From NCBI GenBank assembly GCA_964016885.1, contig OZ024756.1, positions 28,458,001 through 28,522,000 on the forward strand: a stretch of DNA of 64,000 nucleotides, written 5' to 3'. The position numbers and the translations under genes are program-made. Positions 48,107-64,000 of this stretch are shown piece by piece. How positions within the stretch are numbered: position 1 is the stretch's first letter; every line of letters begins with the position of its first letter. Under the pieces are notes generated by a model. The model worked only from the letters and a program-made list of their open reading frames with translations. It did no database searches and was not told the origin of the DNA. The DNA comes from Eledone cirrhosa (lineage: Eukaryota).

Positions 48107-50712
48107 ATGAGTGCCGTCCAGGATCTGGTAAAGAAGCCACCAAGGGCAGTGTGTGACCAAATGACTGCAGCAAGTTCTTCGAGTAAAGCTATGCCATCAA
48201 GATGTGGTTACCTGTGCTTTGTAAATGCCTTGAAACTAGTTGCTCTGGTTGCTTGTTATTACATCCTATCTATCACACTCACCTTCTACAACAAAATATT
48301 TGTAAAGGTACGTTGTAACTTTGAGATACCAACTACACGCCTGAAACTCTGATAAGTCTTAGAAGTATTGGAATTTGAAAAGGATTCCAAGTTATGTAAA
48401 AAACACCCATTAATTCCCACACTCACGCCCACCCCATAGACTGCCACCTCCAGTCTGAGTGTTTTCATCATCATCATCATCTTTACCACCATCACCACCA
48501 GCATCATCATCATCATTTTACGTTCGCCTTCCATGCTGGCATGGGTTGGACAGTTGCCACAGTCTGAGACAAGACAGGGTGGGTTGGATTGGGTTTGGCT
48601 AGGTTTCTACAGTTGGATGCCCTCCCTAATGGCAACCACTTTACAGACTGTAGCGGTTGCACTTTGTCATGGCTCCACCATTACCACTTTACAGAGTCAA
48701 CTTGGTGCATTTTATTGTGGCACCAACACTAGAGAGGTTTGTCATATGCTCTGCCAGACTAAAGAGTCCTTTCTTCCTTATGCTGTCTCTGCTCAATTGC
48801 CAGACATTTTACAGAGTGAACTTGGTGCATATTATTGTGGCACTGCTCCTACCACTATTAATATTATGTCTTATATAATGTGGAAAGTGATATAAGACTA
48901 AACAATGCACATGGACGGCAAGATGAAGGTAACGAAAAATTTAGTTACCTGGTAATCTTTGTTTGTTTTTGTTGCTGTTGTTTATTTTGTCTTTATATTT
49001 CAGGACTTAAAATTCCCTTCTTCAGAGTATAAGGAACTGTTTTCTCTGAGAGTTCCTTATATTCTGAAGAAGGGAATTTTAAGTCTTTAAATATTAGGAC
49101 AAAATACATAACAACAAAAAAAAACAAAACAAACAAAGATTACCAGGTAACTACCATATTTCCTGGTGCTGAGGGCGCTTCGTCCTTGAGGACACACCCT
49201 AATTTTGACGACCAAAAAAAAAAAAAAAATAATAAACAACCTTTGGCCTCCAGGACGCATGGTAGATTTTTTTATACTTAATTTAGGAAAAAAGTAGTGT
49301 CTTTGACACCATGAAATACGGTAACATTTTTGTTATCTTCATCTTATCATCCATTTGTGCATTGTTTAGCCTTATATTACTTTCTACATTATGTAATATA
49401 TTATAATAAATAATAATAATGAAATTATTGTGTACAGTGCTCAGGTGCTCTACAACTCATCAAAGGTGCATGTATAGTACATAGAATAATGTACAAATGT
49501 CAGGAAAATGAACAGTGTATGAGTCATGATATTTATGTGTGCGTGTGTATGGAGGGGGATATCAGGCGTATTGTTGGCGAATTTCAGGAAGCATGGAGGT
49601 TTTAAAGGATGCAGTGTCTCGATAGCTAACAACTGTTGCAGGTAGTTTGTTTCATGCTTCACCAACTCTGAGTGTGAAAAAATGTTTCCGAAAGTCATGT
49701 TTTCTGACTCTGTTGGCATGCCCACGTGTGTTAGACACATGGAAATCAAAAAGGTGCTCAGGGTTGTTGTTGGCAAGATGGTTAATCATTTTGTGGATGT
49801 TTACCAAGTCAGTTGCCAGGCATCGGAGCTTCAATGTATCAATATATAATACTTCAAGCAAAATAAACATTTAAAAAATATCATGTCTGTTTTTCCAGGC
49901 TTGTCAGGGTTGGACATATCTTTTTTAAAACAATGTCTTGTCACTGGAATTGGAACAAGAATTTGTTTCATATTTTTTCTTCAATCTTCTCTCTTTTTTT
50001 TTCAGCATTTCCACCTTCCATTATCTCTGACTCTCTTTCATCTAATTTTCAAATTTATAATGGCCTGGATTGTAAGGGCAATCTGGGAATGGAAGACCCA
50101 AACTCACCGGGTTGAAGTTTCATGGTCAAACTATATCAAACGATTGGCACCACCAGGTAATTAACTTAATAAATCTTTTTCTAAATTGTCACTTGTCAAA
50201 ATTGAATTGTTCCAGTCAATTTGAATGAATGACAAATAAATAGTTAAAATATACACATATCTACACCGGATCCAAACACAAAAGAACCAAATCCCCACTC
50301 TCACTGCCTCCATATCTCCTGCTCTCCCCATCTCTCACTATTGTGAGCAAAAGGGGTCCCACACGCTGGCTGCCCCGTGGTCCCAGCAGACAAAATAGAG
50401 AAGGTGTTTCTCCGAAAGATGGTGAGGGAGACACATCGTTATATATATATATATTTATGTGGTATTCATTTGTATATTGATTGATTCTGATGAGTCCCAC
50501 AAGTATGAAACAATTGTAAATTAAATTATATATATATCCATTATAATATGTTACCAAACACTAGTATTTATATCATAATCTAATTTACAATTGTTTCATC
50601 CTCGTGGGACTGATCAGAATCAATCAATATACAAATAAATACCTCAACAAGTTCATCTTTTCACCTTTCCAGTTTTTATATTTGAAAATGAATTTCTTTA
50701 TATGTGTGTATG

Positions 50713-57700: not shown

Positions 57701-60700
57701 TGTATACTAGGGATTGCACTGTCCAGTATATCCTTGCTTATTTGAGAGAGTAGGGTGTAATTTGGGGGAGATTTGGCTTCTATTTCTAGCAGGTCAAGCA
57801 ACTGTGTAGAGATTCCCTTGAATTTTGGTTGTTATATAGAAGAAACCTGTAATGTATGTAACTTTGAAGTGAATCATAGGTGAAAGATGATTTACAAATA
57901 GAAATAGTTTTAACTATTTTCATTATTATTTTTTCCTCAGCAGGGCAGTGAATTGGTAGAATTGGTAGAGCGTCGGACACCATGCTTTGCAGCATAGAGT
58001 TACGGTCCTTTACAGTCTGAGTTCAAATCCTGCTGAGGTTAGCTTTGCTTTTCATCCTTACGGGGTCGATAAAATAATGCACCAGTAATGCACTGGGGTT
58101 GATTTAATCAACTTTCCCTCCCCTAAAAAATTGTTGGCCTTGTGCCTATATAAGAAATCATGATTTTTCCTCGGCAGGATTTGAACTCGGAGTGTAAAAA
58201 GTTATGTCCCTCTATGTTCCGAGTTCAAATCATGTCAAGGTTAGCTTTACCTTTCATCATTACAGGGACAATAAAATAAAGGTTTAATAATGCACCTGTC
58301 TGATGTCTGCATCCTAGGTGGCTGCCTAGCTGGGCTTAATGGTAGCGAAAGCCCTGGTTGTATGTGATCATGAATTGGTGTTGTCATATTGTCTATAAGC
58401 TGAAGCATATAGACAATATGCCCCCACACCCTCCCACTGCAAAAAAGCACCCAGCTCACACTGTAAAGTGGACGTGTAGGCGCCACGGAAAAAAAGCACC
58501 CAGCACTCACTGTAAATGAGGTTGGTGTTTGGAAGGGCATCCAGCTGTAGAAATCAAGCTAGAATCAGTTCCTGTATGAGCAAGACAAGGTCAGCCGACC
58601 AGACACTGCCCACAACAGGACAACCCGTCTAACCCATGCTAGCATGGAAGAACGGACGTAAAACGGTGATGATGATGATGATTACCAGTCTAGTAGTGGG
58701 GTCGATTCTTCCCCTGTGTCTCTTTGTCATTTCCATTTTTTCACTTTCAATCCTTCTGGAAGAAATCTACTGTATTCAAACCTAGAGAGGATTGCGCTCC
58801 GCCAGGTTTTAAAAATGCCCTACAAATGCTGTATGTCAATACAGTGCTCCTATGACTTCCCCCAAGAGTTACAAGACCAACGGGGCATGCATACCAGTTT
58901 CCTAATCTCATTTTAACTATTTCACTTTGGCTTGAAAGATTTTTTTTTGTTGAATTTTTCAGGGCTGAGAATTGTCAGCACAAAAAATTTTTTCCGGTGC
59001 GACAACATAACTCTTCTCCTACAGAATACCAGTTGGGCATTAATTGGTGCCATTATGGCTTTCTTTATGGAAATAGCCGAGTTTCTTCTCATCCGAAACA
59101 CCTCTAGCCTTACTCTATCAATTGCTGGAATTTTCAAGGTAAGTTTATTATTATTATTTTTTATTTTTTAAGAGGGACTCAATTATCATCATCGTCAGCA
59201 ACAGCATCACCTTCATAATCATCTCTTTCTTCTTCTTTTTCTTCTTCTTCCAATGATGGTGGTGATGGTTACAAAGATGTCAATAATGACAATGATGATG
59301 ATTAGTTCGGTATTCTGTTTCAGTGTTAATGATCTGACACTTAATCAATATGTAATCCATTGATTTATTTCAATTGAATTGTATATCATATCAATTAATT
59401 CTCTTGATTGTGTTGTTTTTTTTTAAATTTGCTCCCATCTCTTTTGCAGGAAATAATTGTATTATTTTTAGCTGCAGAGATCAACGGAGATCATATTTCT
59501 ACCATGAATGCTGTCGGGTTTATCATTTGTCTGTGTGGAATAACATTTCATGTGTTTTTAAAGAATATACAGAGTAAGTATAAAACATTTTATTTATGAA
59601 GATAAAAACATATTCAAACATTACAATCAATAACAACAACTGGCATTTTAAGGCCATCTTAAAAATAGGGCTTGACCATCTTAAAAAAGGGCCTGACCAT
59701 CTTAAAAAGAGGGCTTGCCCATCTTAAAAAGAGGGCTTGCCCATCTTAAAAAAAGGGCTTGGCCATCTTAAAAAAAGGACTCGGTCATCTTTGAAAAGGG
59801 CTTGGTCATCTTAAAAAAAGGACTCGATCATCTTAAAAAAAGGATTCAGTTGTCTTAAAAATTGGGCTTGGTCATTTTAAAAAAAGGGCACGGTCATCTT
59901 TAAGAAAAGGACCTGGTATTCTTAAAAAAAGGACCCAGTCATCTTAAAAAAAGGGCCCAGCCATCTTAAAAAATTGGGCTTGGTCATCTTAAAAAAAGGG
60001 CTTGACCATCTTAAAACTGGACCCAGCCATCTTATAAAGGGTTCAGCCATATTACCCACTATGAAACAGTATGTGAGCCTCAACATGGTCATTCTACTTG
60101 CTAGAAATAGCAGACAAATACAGTACTGCAATCCTAAAAAAGGAAGAACTCATTGGATAATGAAGCTTTAGACACACTAAAACACACTAACAAAAAGGAT
60201 GGGATGGTCATGGCAGGAATATTTTTGATCATAGGTCTGCTGGATTGAGGTTGACTATGGGCTAAATTTCTCCGTTCTTTTATTATCCTTATTCTCTTTC
60301 ATATCCATCAAATCCCACCAAAAGAATGTTTTACAACCACCTGAAGCAAGGATTATCCTTGTCAGACTCCAAGACAAGCTTCTCCATTTTGCCTTATCAA
60401 TCATCTGTAACGCCCCCCCCCCCCCCCCCCCCCACACACCTCACCAGTCTCATGACTTTCATTTCCTGTACCATCACCCTCAGCCAAGTCACTCTTGTTA
60501 TTTCCATTCTTCTTTTATCAACCTTACTCCCCCCTTTCTTACCCCTCACTCCCAACAAAAATGCTTTAAAGCCATCCTCCTTGCTAAGGCAGCAGTTAGC
60601 CTTGTAGGTCCCATGACAAACTTCTCCATTTTGCTCCAATCATCTGTAACCACCCCCCTATGAGAAATGTTCATTGTGCCTTTCTTTTTTCAGGGAATGA

Positions 60701-60812
60701 CAAGCCAAAAAGATGCAATGAATTAGATGAAGAAGTTATAGAAATGTTAAATGCCCATGGTGATGCTAACATAAGTTCTGATGAAGAAACGCATTTTTTA
60801 AGATTACATTGA
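48107..60812 (+). CDS. SLC35C2: SLC35C2 orthologue (nucleotide-sugar/TPT-family transporter), 9 coding exons, ~386 aa. Exons: 48107-48307, 50006-50156, 51110-51173, 53647-53719, 55613-55781, 56750-56833, 58963-59138, 59450-59573, 60694-60812
   Basis: GT-AG introns with consistent phases, 1161 nt. Family motifs: [84 protein letters not shown]. Confidence 0.92.
48860..49405. repeat. Inverted repeat (~180-bp arms) with the right arm interrupted by a MITE
   Basis: Centre at 49039-49050; pairing resumes after the insertion at 49154-49321. Confidence 0.88.
49420..49852 (-). mobile_element. 3' fragment of a CR1/L2-group LINE; second fragment on the plus strand at 21960-22170
   Basis: Translation NTRGH...[21 protein letters not shown]...SFK is typical of the CR1 ORF2 C-terminus. 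Confidence 0.78.
50483..50522 (+). ncRNA. Type I hammerhead ribozyme, one arm of an inverted pair (other copy on the minus strand at 50582-50621)
   Basis: gatt CTGATGA gtcc-cacaa-gtat GAAA caattg TA aatt; the inverted copy reads CTGATCA gtcc-cacga-ggat GAAA caattg TA. Confidence 0.65.
52722..52755 (+). ncRNA. Degenerate minimal hammerhead of Penelope pLTR type
   Basis: ttc CTGAAGA A ggac-atat-gtcc GAAA catt gaa, in a ~300 bp unique insert ending at (TA)n. Confidence 0.5.
54096..54211. repeat. Inverted repeat, 55-bp arms, 6-nt loop
   Basis: ataggaaaatgttt...gctatttc agttca gaaatagc...aaacattttcctat. Confidence 0.95.
55085..55612 (+). repeat. Degenerate ~25-28-bp tandem repeat abutting the SLC35C2 exon 5 acceptor
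   Basis: Unit ctaaccttctctactctatattataaca. Confidence 0.85.
58385..58682 (+). mobile_element. RTE-associated SINE-like repeat (family C). Copies at about 18845-18995, 22770-23092, 35515-35885, 44885-45175, 46757-47040, 48500-48650, 54400-54575
   Basis: ggaagggcatccagctgtagaaa ... acccatgctagcgtggaagatggacgttaaacg(atg)n. Confidence 0.75.
59650..60052. repeat. 21-22-bp minisatellite
   Basis: Unit ccatcttaaaaaaagggcttg. Confidence 0.88.
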
Positions 60813-61183
60813 AGTGATCTAGGGAGTTTGTGTGTTCAAACACATATATTTATGTTTATATATATATATATATATATACATATATGTATATTTATAGATA
60901 TATATTTATATATCTATATATCTTTGCTGTATATATACATACATATATGTATATTTATAGATATATATTTATATATCTATATATCTTTGCTGTGCAAATG
61001 TGAGAAACATGGGATATTTTACTAAAGCTGTATATCTATCTATCTATATATACATATATACATATATAACAGATTTGCTGTTAGTGTTACCCTCTCAGCA
61101 TGAAGTCCATGTAAACATCTTCCATATTGTTAAATTCCTTCAAAGAAGCCAAATTGGTTTCTTTTAAAAACAACCACACACAC

Positions 61184-61230: not shown

Positions 61231-61520
61231 GATTCGCACCTAAGAAGTTGCCCTCCCAGGCACAAGTCCAGGCATGGTTGTTTGTGGAAGATCAGCAGTT
61301 GCCTATGCATACCAGCCACGCCACCGATGTTGTCCAAGGAAAAGTCTAAGGCCGATACAGCTTGGCGCCAGTGATGTCGTAACTCATTTCTACAGCTGAA
61401 TAAACTGGAGCAACGTGAAATAAAGTGTCTTGCTCAAGAACACAACACTCAGGCTGGTCCAGGACTCGTACTCAGAGCCTCACGGTTTTAAGCTTGATGC
61501 TCTAACCACTAAGCCATGTG
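61227..61520 (-). mobile_element. tRNA-derived SINE (family D), minus copy
   Basis: Reverse complement of the 61524-61845 copy; A and B boxes, ttgagcaagacactt core. Confidence 0.85.
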
Positions 61521-61523
61521 TAG

Positions 61524-61845
61524 GCATATGGCTTATTGGTTAGAGCATTGGGCTTGCAATTGTGAGGTTGTGAGTTCGATTCTCAGACTAGGTGATGTGT
61601 TGCATCCTTAAGCAAGACACTTTATTTTGCTTTGCTCCAGTTTACTCAGCTGTAGAAATGAGTTGTGATGTCACTGGTGCCAAGCTGTATCGGCGTTTAC
61701 CTTTCCCTTGGACAACATCGGTGGCGTGGAGAGGGAAGACTGGTACACATGGGTGGCTGCTGGTCTTCTACAAACAACCTTGTCTGGACTCATGCCTCGG
61801 AGGAGAGCTTTCTAGGTGCAAATCCCATGGTCATTCGTGACAAAA
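61524..61845 (+). mobile_element. tRNA-derived SINE (family D), plus copy. Others at 51240-51655, 54600-54750 and 11733-11870
   Basis: A-box tggcttattggttagagc, B-box gagttcgattc. Confidence 0.85.
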
Positions 61846-61852
61846 CAGGATC

Positions 61853-61883
<31 letters not shown>

Positions 61884-62097
61884 AAAAATATGAACTGAAT
61901 TTCATTATTTTGACATTCAAATAGAAAAAACAAAATCAAAGACAACTTTGAAGATATTGTTATTTTTATGCTGTCTTTTTATCTAGAAGATGTATTTATT
62001 TTTATTTTTAATTTCGTATTTTCAAAATATTCTTTTCTAGATCTGTCTTTTAGATCTGATTCATCAGAATTTTTTTTATGGGTCTATATTTTGAGAA

Positions 62098-62151
<54 letters not shown>

Positions 62152-62362
62152 TTTTAAAGAAAAAAAATCAATAAAAAAACAAAACAGACTTTAAACATTT
62201 TAATCAAACCACCCCCAGAAACCTCCTCTCAGATATATCTCATTCGAGTCCTAAATAAAACTACATATGTATGAGCTGTAAAAGAATATGTAAATTTTAT
62301 ATTTTTTATTCAAAAATATAAAGATGTAAAAAAAAAAATTTATTTTTGATGAATATTAAATA

Positions 62363-62420
<58 letters not shown>

Positions 62421-62424
62421 TATA

Positions 62425-62758
62425 TTATAAAGAAAACGAAAAATCAGTGATGCATCTGGACTTAATTTATGCGTGTTACAATTGTTTCTCCGGCAGGTAG
62501 CTTGAGACGTGGTCCTTGTATGGATCTGGCTGATTCTACTTTTGCAGGTTCATTCAGTCACGAGTATTTCGTTAGGAGCAAATTTTATCAGTCATAAAAT
62601 TTGCTCCTAACGAAATACTCGTGTCTGAAAGAACCCGCAGAAGTAGAATCAGCCGGATCCATACAAGGACCACGTCTCGAGCTACCTGCCGGAGAAACAA
62701 TTGTAACACGCAATAAATTAAGTCCAGATGCATCACTGATTTTTCGTTTTCTTTATAA
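62425..62758. repeat. Long inverted repeat, 164/165-bp arms, 5-nt loop
   Basis: 62425-62588 is the reverse complement of 62594-62758 with about 7 differences. Confidence 0.97.
62620..62710 (+). ncRNA. Hammerhead-like motif with 8-nt core and long stem II
   Basis: cgtgt CTGAAAGA [61 nt; ccgcag..gtag pairs with ctacctgccgg] GAAA caattg TA acacg. Confidence 0.5.
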
Positions 62759-62840
62759 CATCTACACTCTACTCTGATGAATATCGAGTGCTAATTTTGG
62801 CATACCGCCTATGGAAGCACCTTAGCTACCATTATACACA

Positions 62841-62883
<43 letters not shown>

Positions 62884-62975
62884 CCAAATATTAATATGGT
62901 TCGTTGATTAATCAACGAATACAATTTTACAATAGATTAGAAGCACTCGACAAGAGATTTTCATGGAGTATTTAA

Positions 62976-63138
62976 TATTATTCAAAATGTTAATAAATGA
63001 AAAATATTCTCATAATCAAATATATATTTTATTATACATATTATGAAAACATACACCATTGTACCTTTGGAATATGTATAATAAAATATATATTTTGATG
63101 ATGAGAATATTTTTCATTTATTAACATTTTGAATAATA
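62976..63138. repeat. AT-rich inverted repeat, ~67-bp arms, 28-nt loop
   Basis: tattattcaaaatgttaataaatg... / ...catttattaacattttgaataata. Confidence 0.9.
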
Positions 63139-63258
63139 TATATATATATATGTATATATATAGCATTTTTATTCATAACAGTATATCTATCTATGTATCT
63201 CTATATATATACATATGTGTGTATATATATGTATGATATATATGTATGATATATATGT

Positions 63259-63795
63259 CACTCAGTTTAACACCACCTCCTGGTCTTTGGGTAATAGAAT
63301 TAATATATCACCCAGTTTAACATTAGCACCAGGTCCTTGGGTGGTAGACTTAATGTATCACCCAGTTTAACACCACCACTTGGTCCTTGGGTGGTAGACT
63401 TAATGTGTCACCCAGTTTAACACCACCACTTGGTCCTTGGGTGGTAGACTTAATGTATCACCCAGTTTAACACCACCACTTGGTCCTTGGGTGGTAGACT
63501 TAATGTGTCACCCAGTTTAACACCACCACCTGGTCCTTGGGTGGTAGACTTAATCTGTCACCCAGTTTAACACCACCACTTGGTCCTTGGGTGGTAGACT
63601 TAATGTGTCACCCAGTTTGACACCACCACTTGGTCCTTGGGTGGTAGACTTAATGTATCACCCAGTTTAACACCACCACTTGGTCCTTGGGTGGTAGACT
63701 TAATGTGTCACCCAGTTTAACACCACCACTTGGTCCTTGGGTGGTAGACTTAATGTGTCACCCAGTTTTGCACCACCACTTGGTCCTTGGGTGGG
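63259..63795. repeat. 49-bp minisatellite (~11 copies)
   Basis: Unit cacccagtttaacaccaccacttggtccttgggtggtagacttaatgtgt. Confidence 0.93.
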
Positions 63796-64000
63796 TGGTC
63801 TCAGGGTCGCCATCACCCGGCCCTTGGGTGCTAGATGTGATATGATGATCCATTTAATACCACCATCTGGTCCTTGGATGGATGGCGACAGGTAATCAGA
63901 ATCTTCCACCCAGTTTATCACAACCACCTGGCCCATGTGCTTCTGCTATTGCAGAGTAATAAGGTGCTGAGTTCAAGTCCCCCATTTTCTGCTCTCCTGT

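Follow-up and report, generated by a model that had tools for sequence, protein, structure and literature searches.

The Hydra clade of Penelope-like retroelements (Craig et al. 2021, PMC8557442) is marked by an endonuclease of the GIY-YIG type at the C terminus, a DKT motif, a CxCx5C linker, and the CxxC and CxH motifs. An octopus member, Hydra-1_Obim, has been described. Insertions of these elements into (TA)n targets usually take the form of an inverted, 5'-truncated copy with a tail of 30–40 bp on one side only. A type I hammerhead ribozyme is found near the 3' end, often with a mismatch at the base of stem II. In File S2 of that report, 26 of 26 Hydra rows have the core CUGANGA and a short stem II, and many Hydra rows have U.U at position 10.1-11.1.

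For the Poseidon element of Anolis (PAc), which belongs to another clade, the element protein nicks AT-rich DNA, and the tail is defined by two start sites of reverse transcription (Frangieh et al. 2024, PMC11167929). The pLTR hammerhead of PAc has a canonical core and cut only with the element protein, and it was dispensable for insertion in vitro. The minimal hammerheads of metazoan Penelope-like elements (Cervera and De la Pena 2014, PMC4209133) belong to type I and have a helix I of 4–5 bp, an enlarged helix II, an unpaired base after A9, and a palindromic helix III by which two motifs can assemble into a dimer that is active at a low rate. They occur as dual copies on opposite strands, 100–700 bp apart. 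A natural insertion of one base after A6 (A6a) has been reported as a rare single example from a bacterium or phage, which was slow when tested, and U4C is known from the same report as a slow viroid variant (Perreault et al. 2011, PMC3088659).

Here we analyze a hairpin in a window of 64,000 nucleotides from Eledone cirrhosa (contig OZ024756.1, positions 28,458,001 to 28,522,000 of the forward strand). This hairpin comes from the 3' end of a Penelope-like retroelement of the Hydra clade, which entered (TA)n as a short fold-back, and it shares with the described members of that clade the protein motifs, the target, the form of the insertion, and the type I hammerhead with a mismatched stem II base. 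It differs from them in having a CYGAANGA core with a 61-nt stem II and a tail of about 87 bp, in a 3' region rich in microsatellites, and in the long insert that separates thumb from linker. With PAc it shares the AT-rich target and the pLTR hammerhead, and it would also share the two start sites of reverse transcription; the protein-assisted cutting shown in vitro for PAc is here presumed. The locus resembles these minimal hammerheads in the structural properties listed above, including a palindromic helix III that would need a dimer. The helix II of those motifs is 6–8 bp with a G10.1-C11.1 pair, however, and no 8-nt core is described in the available portion of PMC4209133. The position of the extra base after A6 and the strain expected on the U4-phosphate contact are as in A6a, but in this genome the insertion is fixed in a large animal retroelement lineage.

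Results and Discussion

Hairpin and Hammerhead Motif

The preliminary description had reported a hairpin with arms of about 164 bp and, within the right arm, a 5-bp stem I, an 8-nt core, a 61-nt stem II, and the string GAAA-CAATTG-TA, each of which was located by position (Table 1). The left arm is 164 bp and the right arm 165 bp in length, with 6 substitutions and 1 indel between them, and the element extends beyond the right arm as a tail of ~87 bp.

Table 1. Features of the fold-back insertion and its flanks, in window positions
Feature	Positions	Strand	Remarks
(TA)n target tract, left flank	62361..62424	.	basis: sequence
Inverted copy of element 3' end (pLTR fragment)	62425..62588	-	runs straight into (TA)n, without tail
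Left-arm hammerhead motif	62472..62562	-	core CTGAATGA at 62550-62557; stem I pair beside core broken at 62558
Fold-back center	62589..62593	+	family pile-up of 5' ends (62589-62596 equivalent); likely RNA start
Sense copy of element 3' end (pLTR fragment)	62594..62758	+	
Stem I, 5' strand (CGTGT)	62620..62624	+	pairs with 62706-62710
Right-arm core, CTGAAAGA	62625..62632	+	8 nt
Same core, as CUGAAAGA	62625..62632	+	C3 U4 G5 A6, extra base, N7 G8 A9
Stem II, 61 nt	62633..62693	+	A.A mismatch at base; fold covaries across subfamilies
GAAA; palindromic helix III CAATTG; TA (U16.1 and A17)	62694..62697; 62698..62703; 62704..62705	+	
Predicted cut	after 62705	+	basis: numbering from established hammerhead consensus
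Stem I, 3' strand (ACACG)	62706..62710	+	
Element tail, one end only	62759..62845 (end approximate)	+	basis: genome search, 1520 first-look candidates
(TA)n target tract, right flank	62846..62882	.	basis: sequence

Helices I, II, and III surround the core in the order of a type I hammerhead, helix III being one pair plus the palindrome, and the GAAA, A15.1-U16.1, and H17 that this type requires are all present. The consensus core CUGANGA is found in sister subfamilies; in the lineage of the window copy the core is 8 nt. Base pair 10.1-11.1, usually G-C, is replaced by A.A (as in the window copy) or A.C in the 8-nt lineage, and a mismatch at this pair also occurs in the 7-nt families B and H of the same genome. 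The preliminary description did not include the A.A mismatch. The minimum-energy fold of nucleotides 62615-62715 (101 nt) is the hammerhead, at -19.0 kcal/mol. Control searches with the patterns read backward gave 0–7 matches versus hundreds to thousands for the real patterns, and the motif is therefore not a product of chance. Rfam returned no gathering-threshold hammerhead match within the window. In 62380-62900 there were 19 Rfam matches at E up to 10, none of a hammerhead family; they comprised only matches in which the hairpin mimics a microRNA precursor, far below gathering. Rfam also misses the canonical-core motif at 50487.

The CAATTG helix III was previously noted to be common to the ribozyme at 50487, and GAAA-CAATTG-TA is indeed identical in both. 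The fold-back at 50470-50620 belongs to a different family and carries a short-stem hammerhead with the core CTGATGA on the plus strand and CTGATCA in the minus-strand copy.

The core of the left arm is also 8 nt, and thus the extra base is older than the inversion, as had been proposed. Three CpG-type changes had been assigned to the left arm. The change at 62503 is clear CpG decay and that at 62527 is either decay or an older family allele, but the third was misattributed: at 62546 the left-arm letter matches 35 of 36 CTGAATGA copies, so that the right arm is the odd one. Two right-arm letters, at 62630 and 62636, are those of the preceding subfamily, in a background otherwise belonging to the youngest one; the two arms may stem from different templates or may have undergone conversion.

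Directly after the right (TA)n tract there is a different high-copy repeat (62875-63140), which resembles locus L014:2370-2600. Tandem arrays are found at 63243-63800 (~11 copies of a 50-bp unit) and at about 59650-60040 (32–33-bp unit).

Identity of the Element

The Penelope-like element and its tail were absent from the preliminary description. The genome (3.0 Gb, 1,796 contigs) was searched with the arm sequence, which gave 2,511 first-look candidates, and with a 20-mer just 3' of the ribozyme, which gave 2,267 exact matches versus 0 in the control. Short opposite-strand pairs account for 30 of the first 100 listed 20-mer matches (hand count). The motif is a feature of a dispersed family and is not specific to this locus.

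Longer copies contain, upstream of the same pLTR and on the strand of the ribozyme, pieces of RT, thumb, linker, and C-terminal GIY-YIG. The RT (YRDD), thumb (SNHP), WFNAP linker, and YKC..YIG are broken but in order in L321, L326, L327, L032, and L033. These coding pieces were identified by motif, the Hydra motifs being distributed across loci L321, L324, L326, L327, L032, and L033; Pfam gave no match for four of four coding pieces. The endonuclease is C-terminal in the coding copies. A CxCx5C linker (CNCRAGTRC), together with CxxC (CRLC) and CxH (CRH) in the endonuclease and no CCHH, was found in L033 and others. The DKT and RWR motifs are present in L324, a 7-nt A0 relative of the same lineage; the 8-nt copies examined had truncated N-termini, and these two motifs were not seen in them. 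The (TA)n insertion, the inverted 5'-truncated copy, and the one-sided tail were all observed.

A Naiad Penelope-like element was considered and rejected, its domain order being wrong for these copies, in which the endonuclease is C-terminal and not N-terminal. A non-LTR retrozyme was also rejected: the pair is arranged head-to-head and not as head-to-tail tandem monomers, and the motif is attached to coding elements elsewhere.

Of the 97 anchored copies, 25 have their 5' end 105–121 bases ahead of the cut site, in most cases at the position corresponding to 62589-62596. The pile-up is sharp, about 30–36 bases before the core, at a CAGT motif. Because 5' ends pile up there and both arms of the window copy begin there, this position is likely the 5' end of the RNA, and the window appears to hold a minimal copy, from RNA start to tail, plus its inverted partner.

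No second, canonical hammerhead was found elsewhere in the element in the three stretches scanned. In a metagenome scan, 0 of 16 matches continue as this element. The family was seen, without indel rows, in four sequencing runs (DNA or undeclared type), which have no bearing on expression.

In L032:2780-4700 and L034 the endonuclease and the pLTR of the element are separated by ~2 kb of sequence rich in (CA)/(TA), and a long low-complexity insert lies from thumb to linker. Within L031:1453-8161, a complete fold-back copy together with 1.9 kb of its flank has an inverted duplicate 4 kb away. Near-identical copies in L035, L036, and L016-L021 lie beside more intact Hydra-type ORFs of another family, and this unit is repeated several times on C4 at 204.1-204.6 Mb, likely by segmental duplication.

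Origin of the 8-nt Core

Searching with the exact family flanks gave 853 matches, and all of the first 100 listed have an 8-nt core (76 AA, 18 AG, 4 AT, and 2 other, hand count). Since the flank pattern includes core bases, a second sample was anchored by the 20-mer outside the ribozyme; it comprised 97 copies from the first 100 listed matches, all on contig C1. Of these copies, 33 are truncated and 64 cover the core, which is 8 nt in 50, 7 nt in 11, and aberrant in 3. An earlier pass of the same sampling gave 8 nt in 40 of 51. Scaling this sample to the 2,267 matches leads to an estimate of ~1,100–1,200 copies with the 8-nt core. Other genomic copies keep both the 8-nt core length and the stems.

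Sister family B has the core CTGAGGA, the same architecture, and 920 anchor matches. In a tree of 74 of the 147 copies, from which the core columns were left out, 48 of 48 8-nt rows fall on one side of a 100/99 branch, with the 7-nt CCGACGA and CCGAAGA copies and family B outside. The direction of change is from 7 to 8 nt because the more distant long-stem families C, E, and G have 7-nt cores. The extra core base has a single origin, its source being 7-nt sisters with the same long stem II. The order along the lineage is CCGAAGGA, CTGAAGGA, CTGAAAGA, and then CTGAATGA, with several weak inner branches. The window copy falls in the last group, apart from the two right-arm letters mentioned above, which typify the subfamily before it. 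Doubling of a G after N7 (CCGAAGA to CCGAAGGA) may have been the founding change; it yields an 8-nt string of the same class.

Both the long stem II and its basal mismatch predate the core insertion, and the 7-nt ancestors already had U4C together with this mismatch. The long stem II, one of the two features given for calling the hammerhead atypical, is common to the 7-nt sister and cousin families in the same genome. The proposal that the motif is an undescribed hammerhead variant is likewise not sustained, since the A6a insertion has already been published as a natural variant of low activity (PMC3088659).

Hammerheads with a 55–85-nt stem II also occur in families C (L045, L182), E (L096, L111, L116), and G (L118-L143). 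Family C copies have CTGATGT (A9U), and family E has CCGAAGA or CTGGAGA with a UU cut site. Family H (e.g., L394-L413) carries a short-stem hammerhead with 5,368 exact matches. Among the first 100 listed, almost every one combines C at position 4 (CCGAAGA) with a mismatched stem II base, and U4C is thus fixed in this very large family. The 8-nt matches in family H are sporadic among the 5,368 mostly 7-nt matches and do not represent another origin.

Family D gave 389 matches, the first 100 listed being 54 8-nt, 45 7-nt, and 1 9-nt (hand count), and the AU test rejected a single 8-nt clade (p = 5e-9), although two of its rows (L215, L216) carried wrong labels. Family D was rejected as a second origin of CUGAAUGA. 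Of 27 copies, 24 contain an inner 7-nt core of the CCGATGA type that has a stem I of its own and a short stem II, an arrangement that resembles family H, and therefore the upstream motif is not the working core of D. The core-like motif lies ~50 bases upstream of the working core (L102:1490-1600, L196, L374) and is possibly a decayed duplicate that gained the extra base in one subfamily. Several copies have a deletion form in which the upstream motif is fused to GAAA. A core-like 8-nt motif arose in this spare D motif, and such insertions can therefore arise without constraint. A loose 8-nt pattern (1,124 matches) overcounts because it includes family D and family E stems.

Conservation of the Fold

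A shared change was defined as a letter found in at least 10% of the 50 8-nt copies. By structural class, such changes affect 8 of the 26 positions that are unpaired, 12 of the 41 in the flanks, 4 of the 52 that are paired, and 1 of the 13 in the core. The difference between paired positions and unpaired plus flank positions (4/52 vs 20/67) gave p = 0.003, that between unpaired and paired plus core positions gave p = 0.008, and the core alone (1/13 vs 20/67) was not significant at p = 0.17; these Fisher tests count sites, which are not independent trials given few events in one lineage, with the structure taken from one copy. Because the shared changes avoided paired positions, the fold was kept after the insertion. 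The conservation of the core alone is not significant, and the kept fold may therefore serve protein binding instead. In the core, the sole shared change restores the consensus U4 from C4, and G, A, and U alternate freely at position 7.

Among 27 chosen copies, 8 of 24 pairs have changed on both sides and 93.5% of the cells pair, versus 24–42% in the slid controls. RNAalifold, unaided, recovered the same stem II but not stem I. The G62655-C62673 pair swaps with A-U inside the lineage, and a Watson-Crick pair is kept in 71 of 82 copies. Private changes, which are rare, have about the same frequency in every structural class, and thus the inserted copies decay neutrally and the constraint acted in the source elements.

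The largest subfamily has a divergence of 3.4% from the column majority. In the young subfamily with the most copies (23 of 64), CATTTG replaces the palindrome and one stem II pair is broken; with the extra base and the A.A or A.C at the stem II base, these departures from the consensus accumulate and count against catalysis. Folded in a 172-nt context, 8-nt copies have the hammerhead 4–7 kcal/mol above the minimum, versus 0.9–6.4 kcal/mol for the 7-nt relatives. No accumulation of 5' ends is seen at the cut site (3/97 in A, the family of the window copy, and 1/30 in the 7-nt sister B), a result that is uninformative.

Possible Activity of the 8-nt Hammerhead

We favor, with a probability of roughly 0.55, the reading that the 8-nt motif would act in the source elements as a slow ribozyme, assisted by a dimer or by protein, and that at this locus it would be locked by the hairpin. 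In the proposed mechanism, the element protein would nick (TA)n and reverse-transcribe from two start sites, with and without the tail. Reverse transcription would run to the 5' end of the RNA at about 62589, and two short cDNAs would join head to head to give the fold-back. Helix III would form by the pairing of two motifs via CAAUUG, with slow cutting after A62705, and this cutting would be helpful at most and not required for insertion. The two start sites, the protein-assisted cutting, and its dispensability are taken by analogy from PAc (PMC11167929), and the low-rate dimer through a palindromic helix III from the metazoan minimal hammerheads (PMC4209133). For the full hairpin RNA, the computed fold is -285 kcal/mol with a hammerhead pair probability of 0.0, and in a read-through RNA across both arms the hairpin is predicted to sequester both ribozyme copies.

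It is possible, at perhaps one chance in three, that the extra base killed catalysis and that the fold was kept only to bind or position the element protein, the lineage spreading without cutting. Against such a dead core stand the absence, among 50 copies of four subfamilies, of any shared change at C3, G5, A6, G8, A9, G12-A15, U16.1, or A17, and the variation at position 7 only, as in working hammerheads. The reversion of C4 to U4 points in the same direction; it is weak evidence because C4-to-U is the commonest CpG mutation. On the other side, the significant bias is at paired positions only and not at core bases, the commonest young subfamily has lost the helix III palindrome, and the ancestors already had U4C and the mismatch at the stem II base. 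In vitro, insertion persists in cleavage-dead mutants of PAc (PMC11167929), canonical hammerheads are missing from Naiad elements (PMC8557442), and core mutants are low-scoring in deep mutagenesis (PMC9901934), all of which agree with this reading.

That the lineage fixed an efficiently cutting 8-nt core, with the 61-nt stem II or its own protein accommodating the extra base, is unlikely, and that the core is fully active because contacts from the long stem II or the element protein bulge the extra base out is very unlikely. The conservation of the long stem II with compensatory changes, and the continued amplification of the lineage after the insertion into low-divergence subfamilies, speak for full activity. 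However, the long stem II predates the insertion and in families B, C, E, and G accompanies a 7-nt core, the analysis identified no tertiary contact, and the published A6a ribozyme is slow (PMC3088659). If an efficient 8-nt core were nonetheless present, it would be the first lineage-wide working one, with its 7-nt ancestors and each intermediate in one genome.

Upstream Gene

The hairpin had been described as sense to a transporter gene and just past its likely poly(A) signals, and this setting holds. A nucleotide-sugar-transporter-like gene on the plus strand, for which the name SLC35C2 would fit, has its stop at 60811-60813, 1.6 kb before the hairpin, and AATAAA/ATTAAA hexamers are found at 61399-62355. 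Single exons of this gene gave no Pfam match, and the sole match in a PDB search was weak (a translocator, E = 0.6). The location looks incidental because thousands of dispersed copies land in (TA)n, and no link between the hairpin and the gene was found. Co-option of this copy by the gene, to cut read-through RNA or to yield small RNAs from the hairpin, is scarcely credible: the sense orientation just beyond several poly(A)-like hexamers and a 164-bp hairpin that would be a Dicer or ADAR substrate if transcribed are outweighed by the dispersal and (TA)n targeting of the family, the predicted blocking of the ribozyme fold by the hairpin, the ordinary divergence of both arms, and the damage to stem I of the left copy. 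A protein kinase first exon, presumably SNRK-like, is found on the plus strand at L037:9143-9499, about 9 kb past the end of the window.

Conclusions

Fold-back insertions, pLTR hammerheads, and the 8-nt core as a rare variant are already known. In the literature searched and in File S2 of PMC8557442, we found no report of an 8-nt core fixed in a Penelope-like lineage, nor of a 55–85-nt stem II in Hydra-clade hammerheads; the Penelope hammerhead variants of Lunse et al. may include such cores.

The hairpin itself is routine. Its value lies in a natural allelic series in one genome on a nearly constant scaffold, consisting of a 7-nt canonical form, a 7-nt U4C form, an 8-nt U4C form, and three 8-nt U4 forms, one with a broken palindrome. 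With this series, one can ask directly if cutting by the hammerhead is of consequence to Penelope-like elements. Were the 8-nt forms dead, the fold by itself would have sufficed for the lineage to spread over several subfamilies. Should they cut, an insertion in the hammerhead core is tolerated much more broadly than a single rare example had indicated, and whole families escape CUGANGA descriptors.
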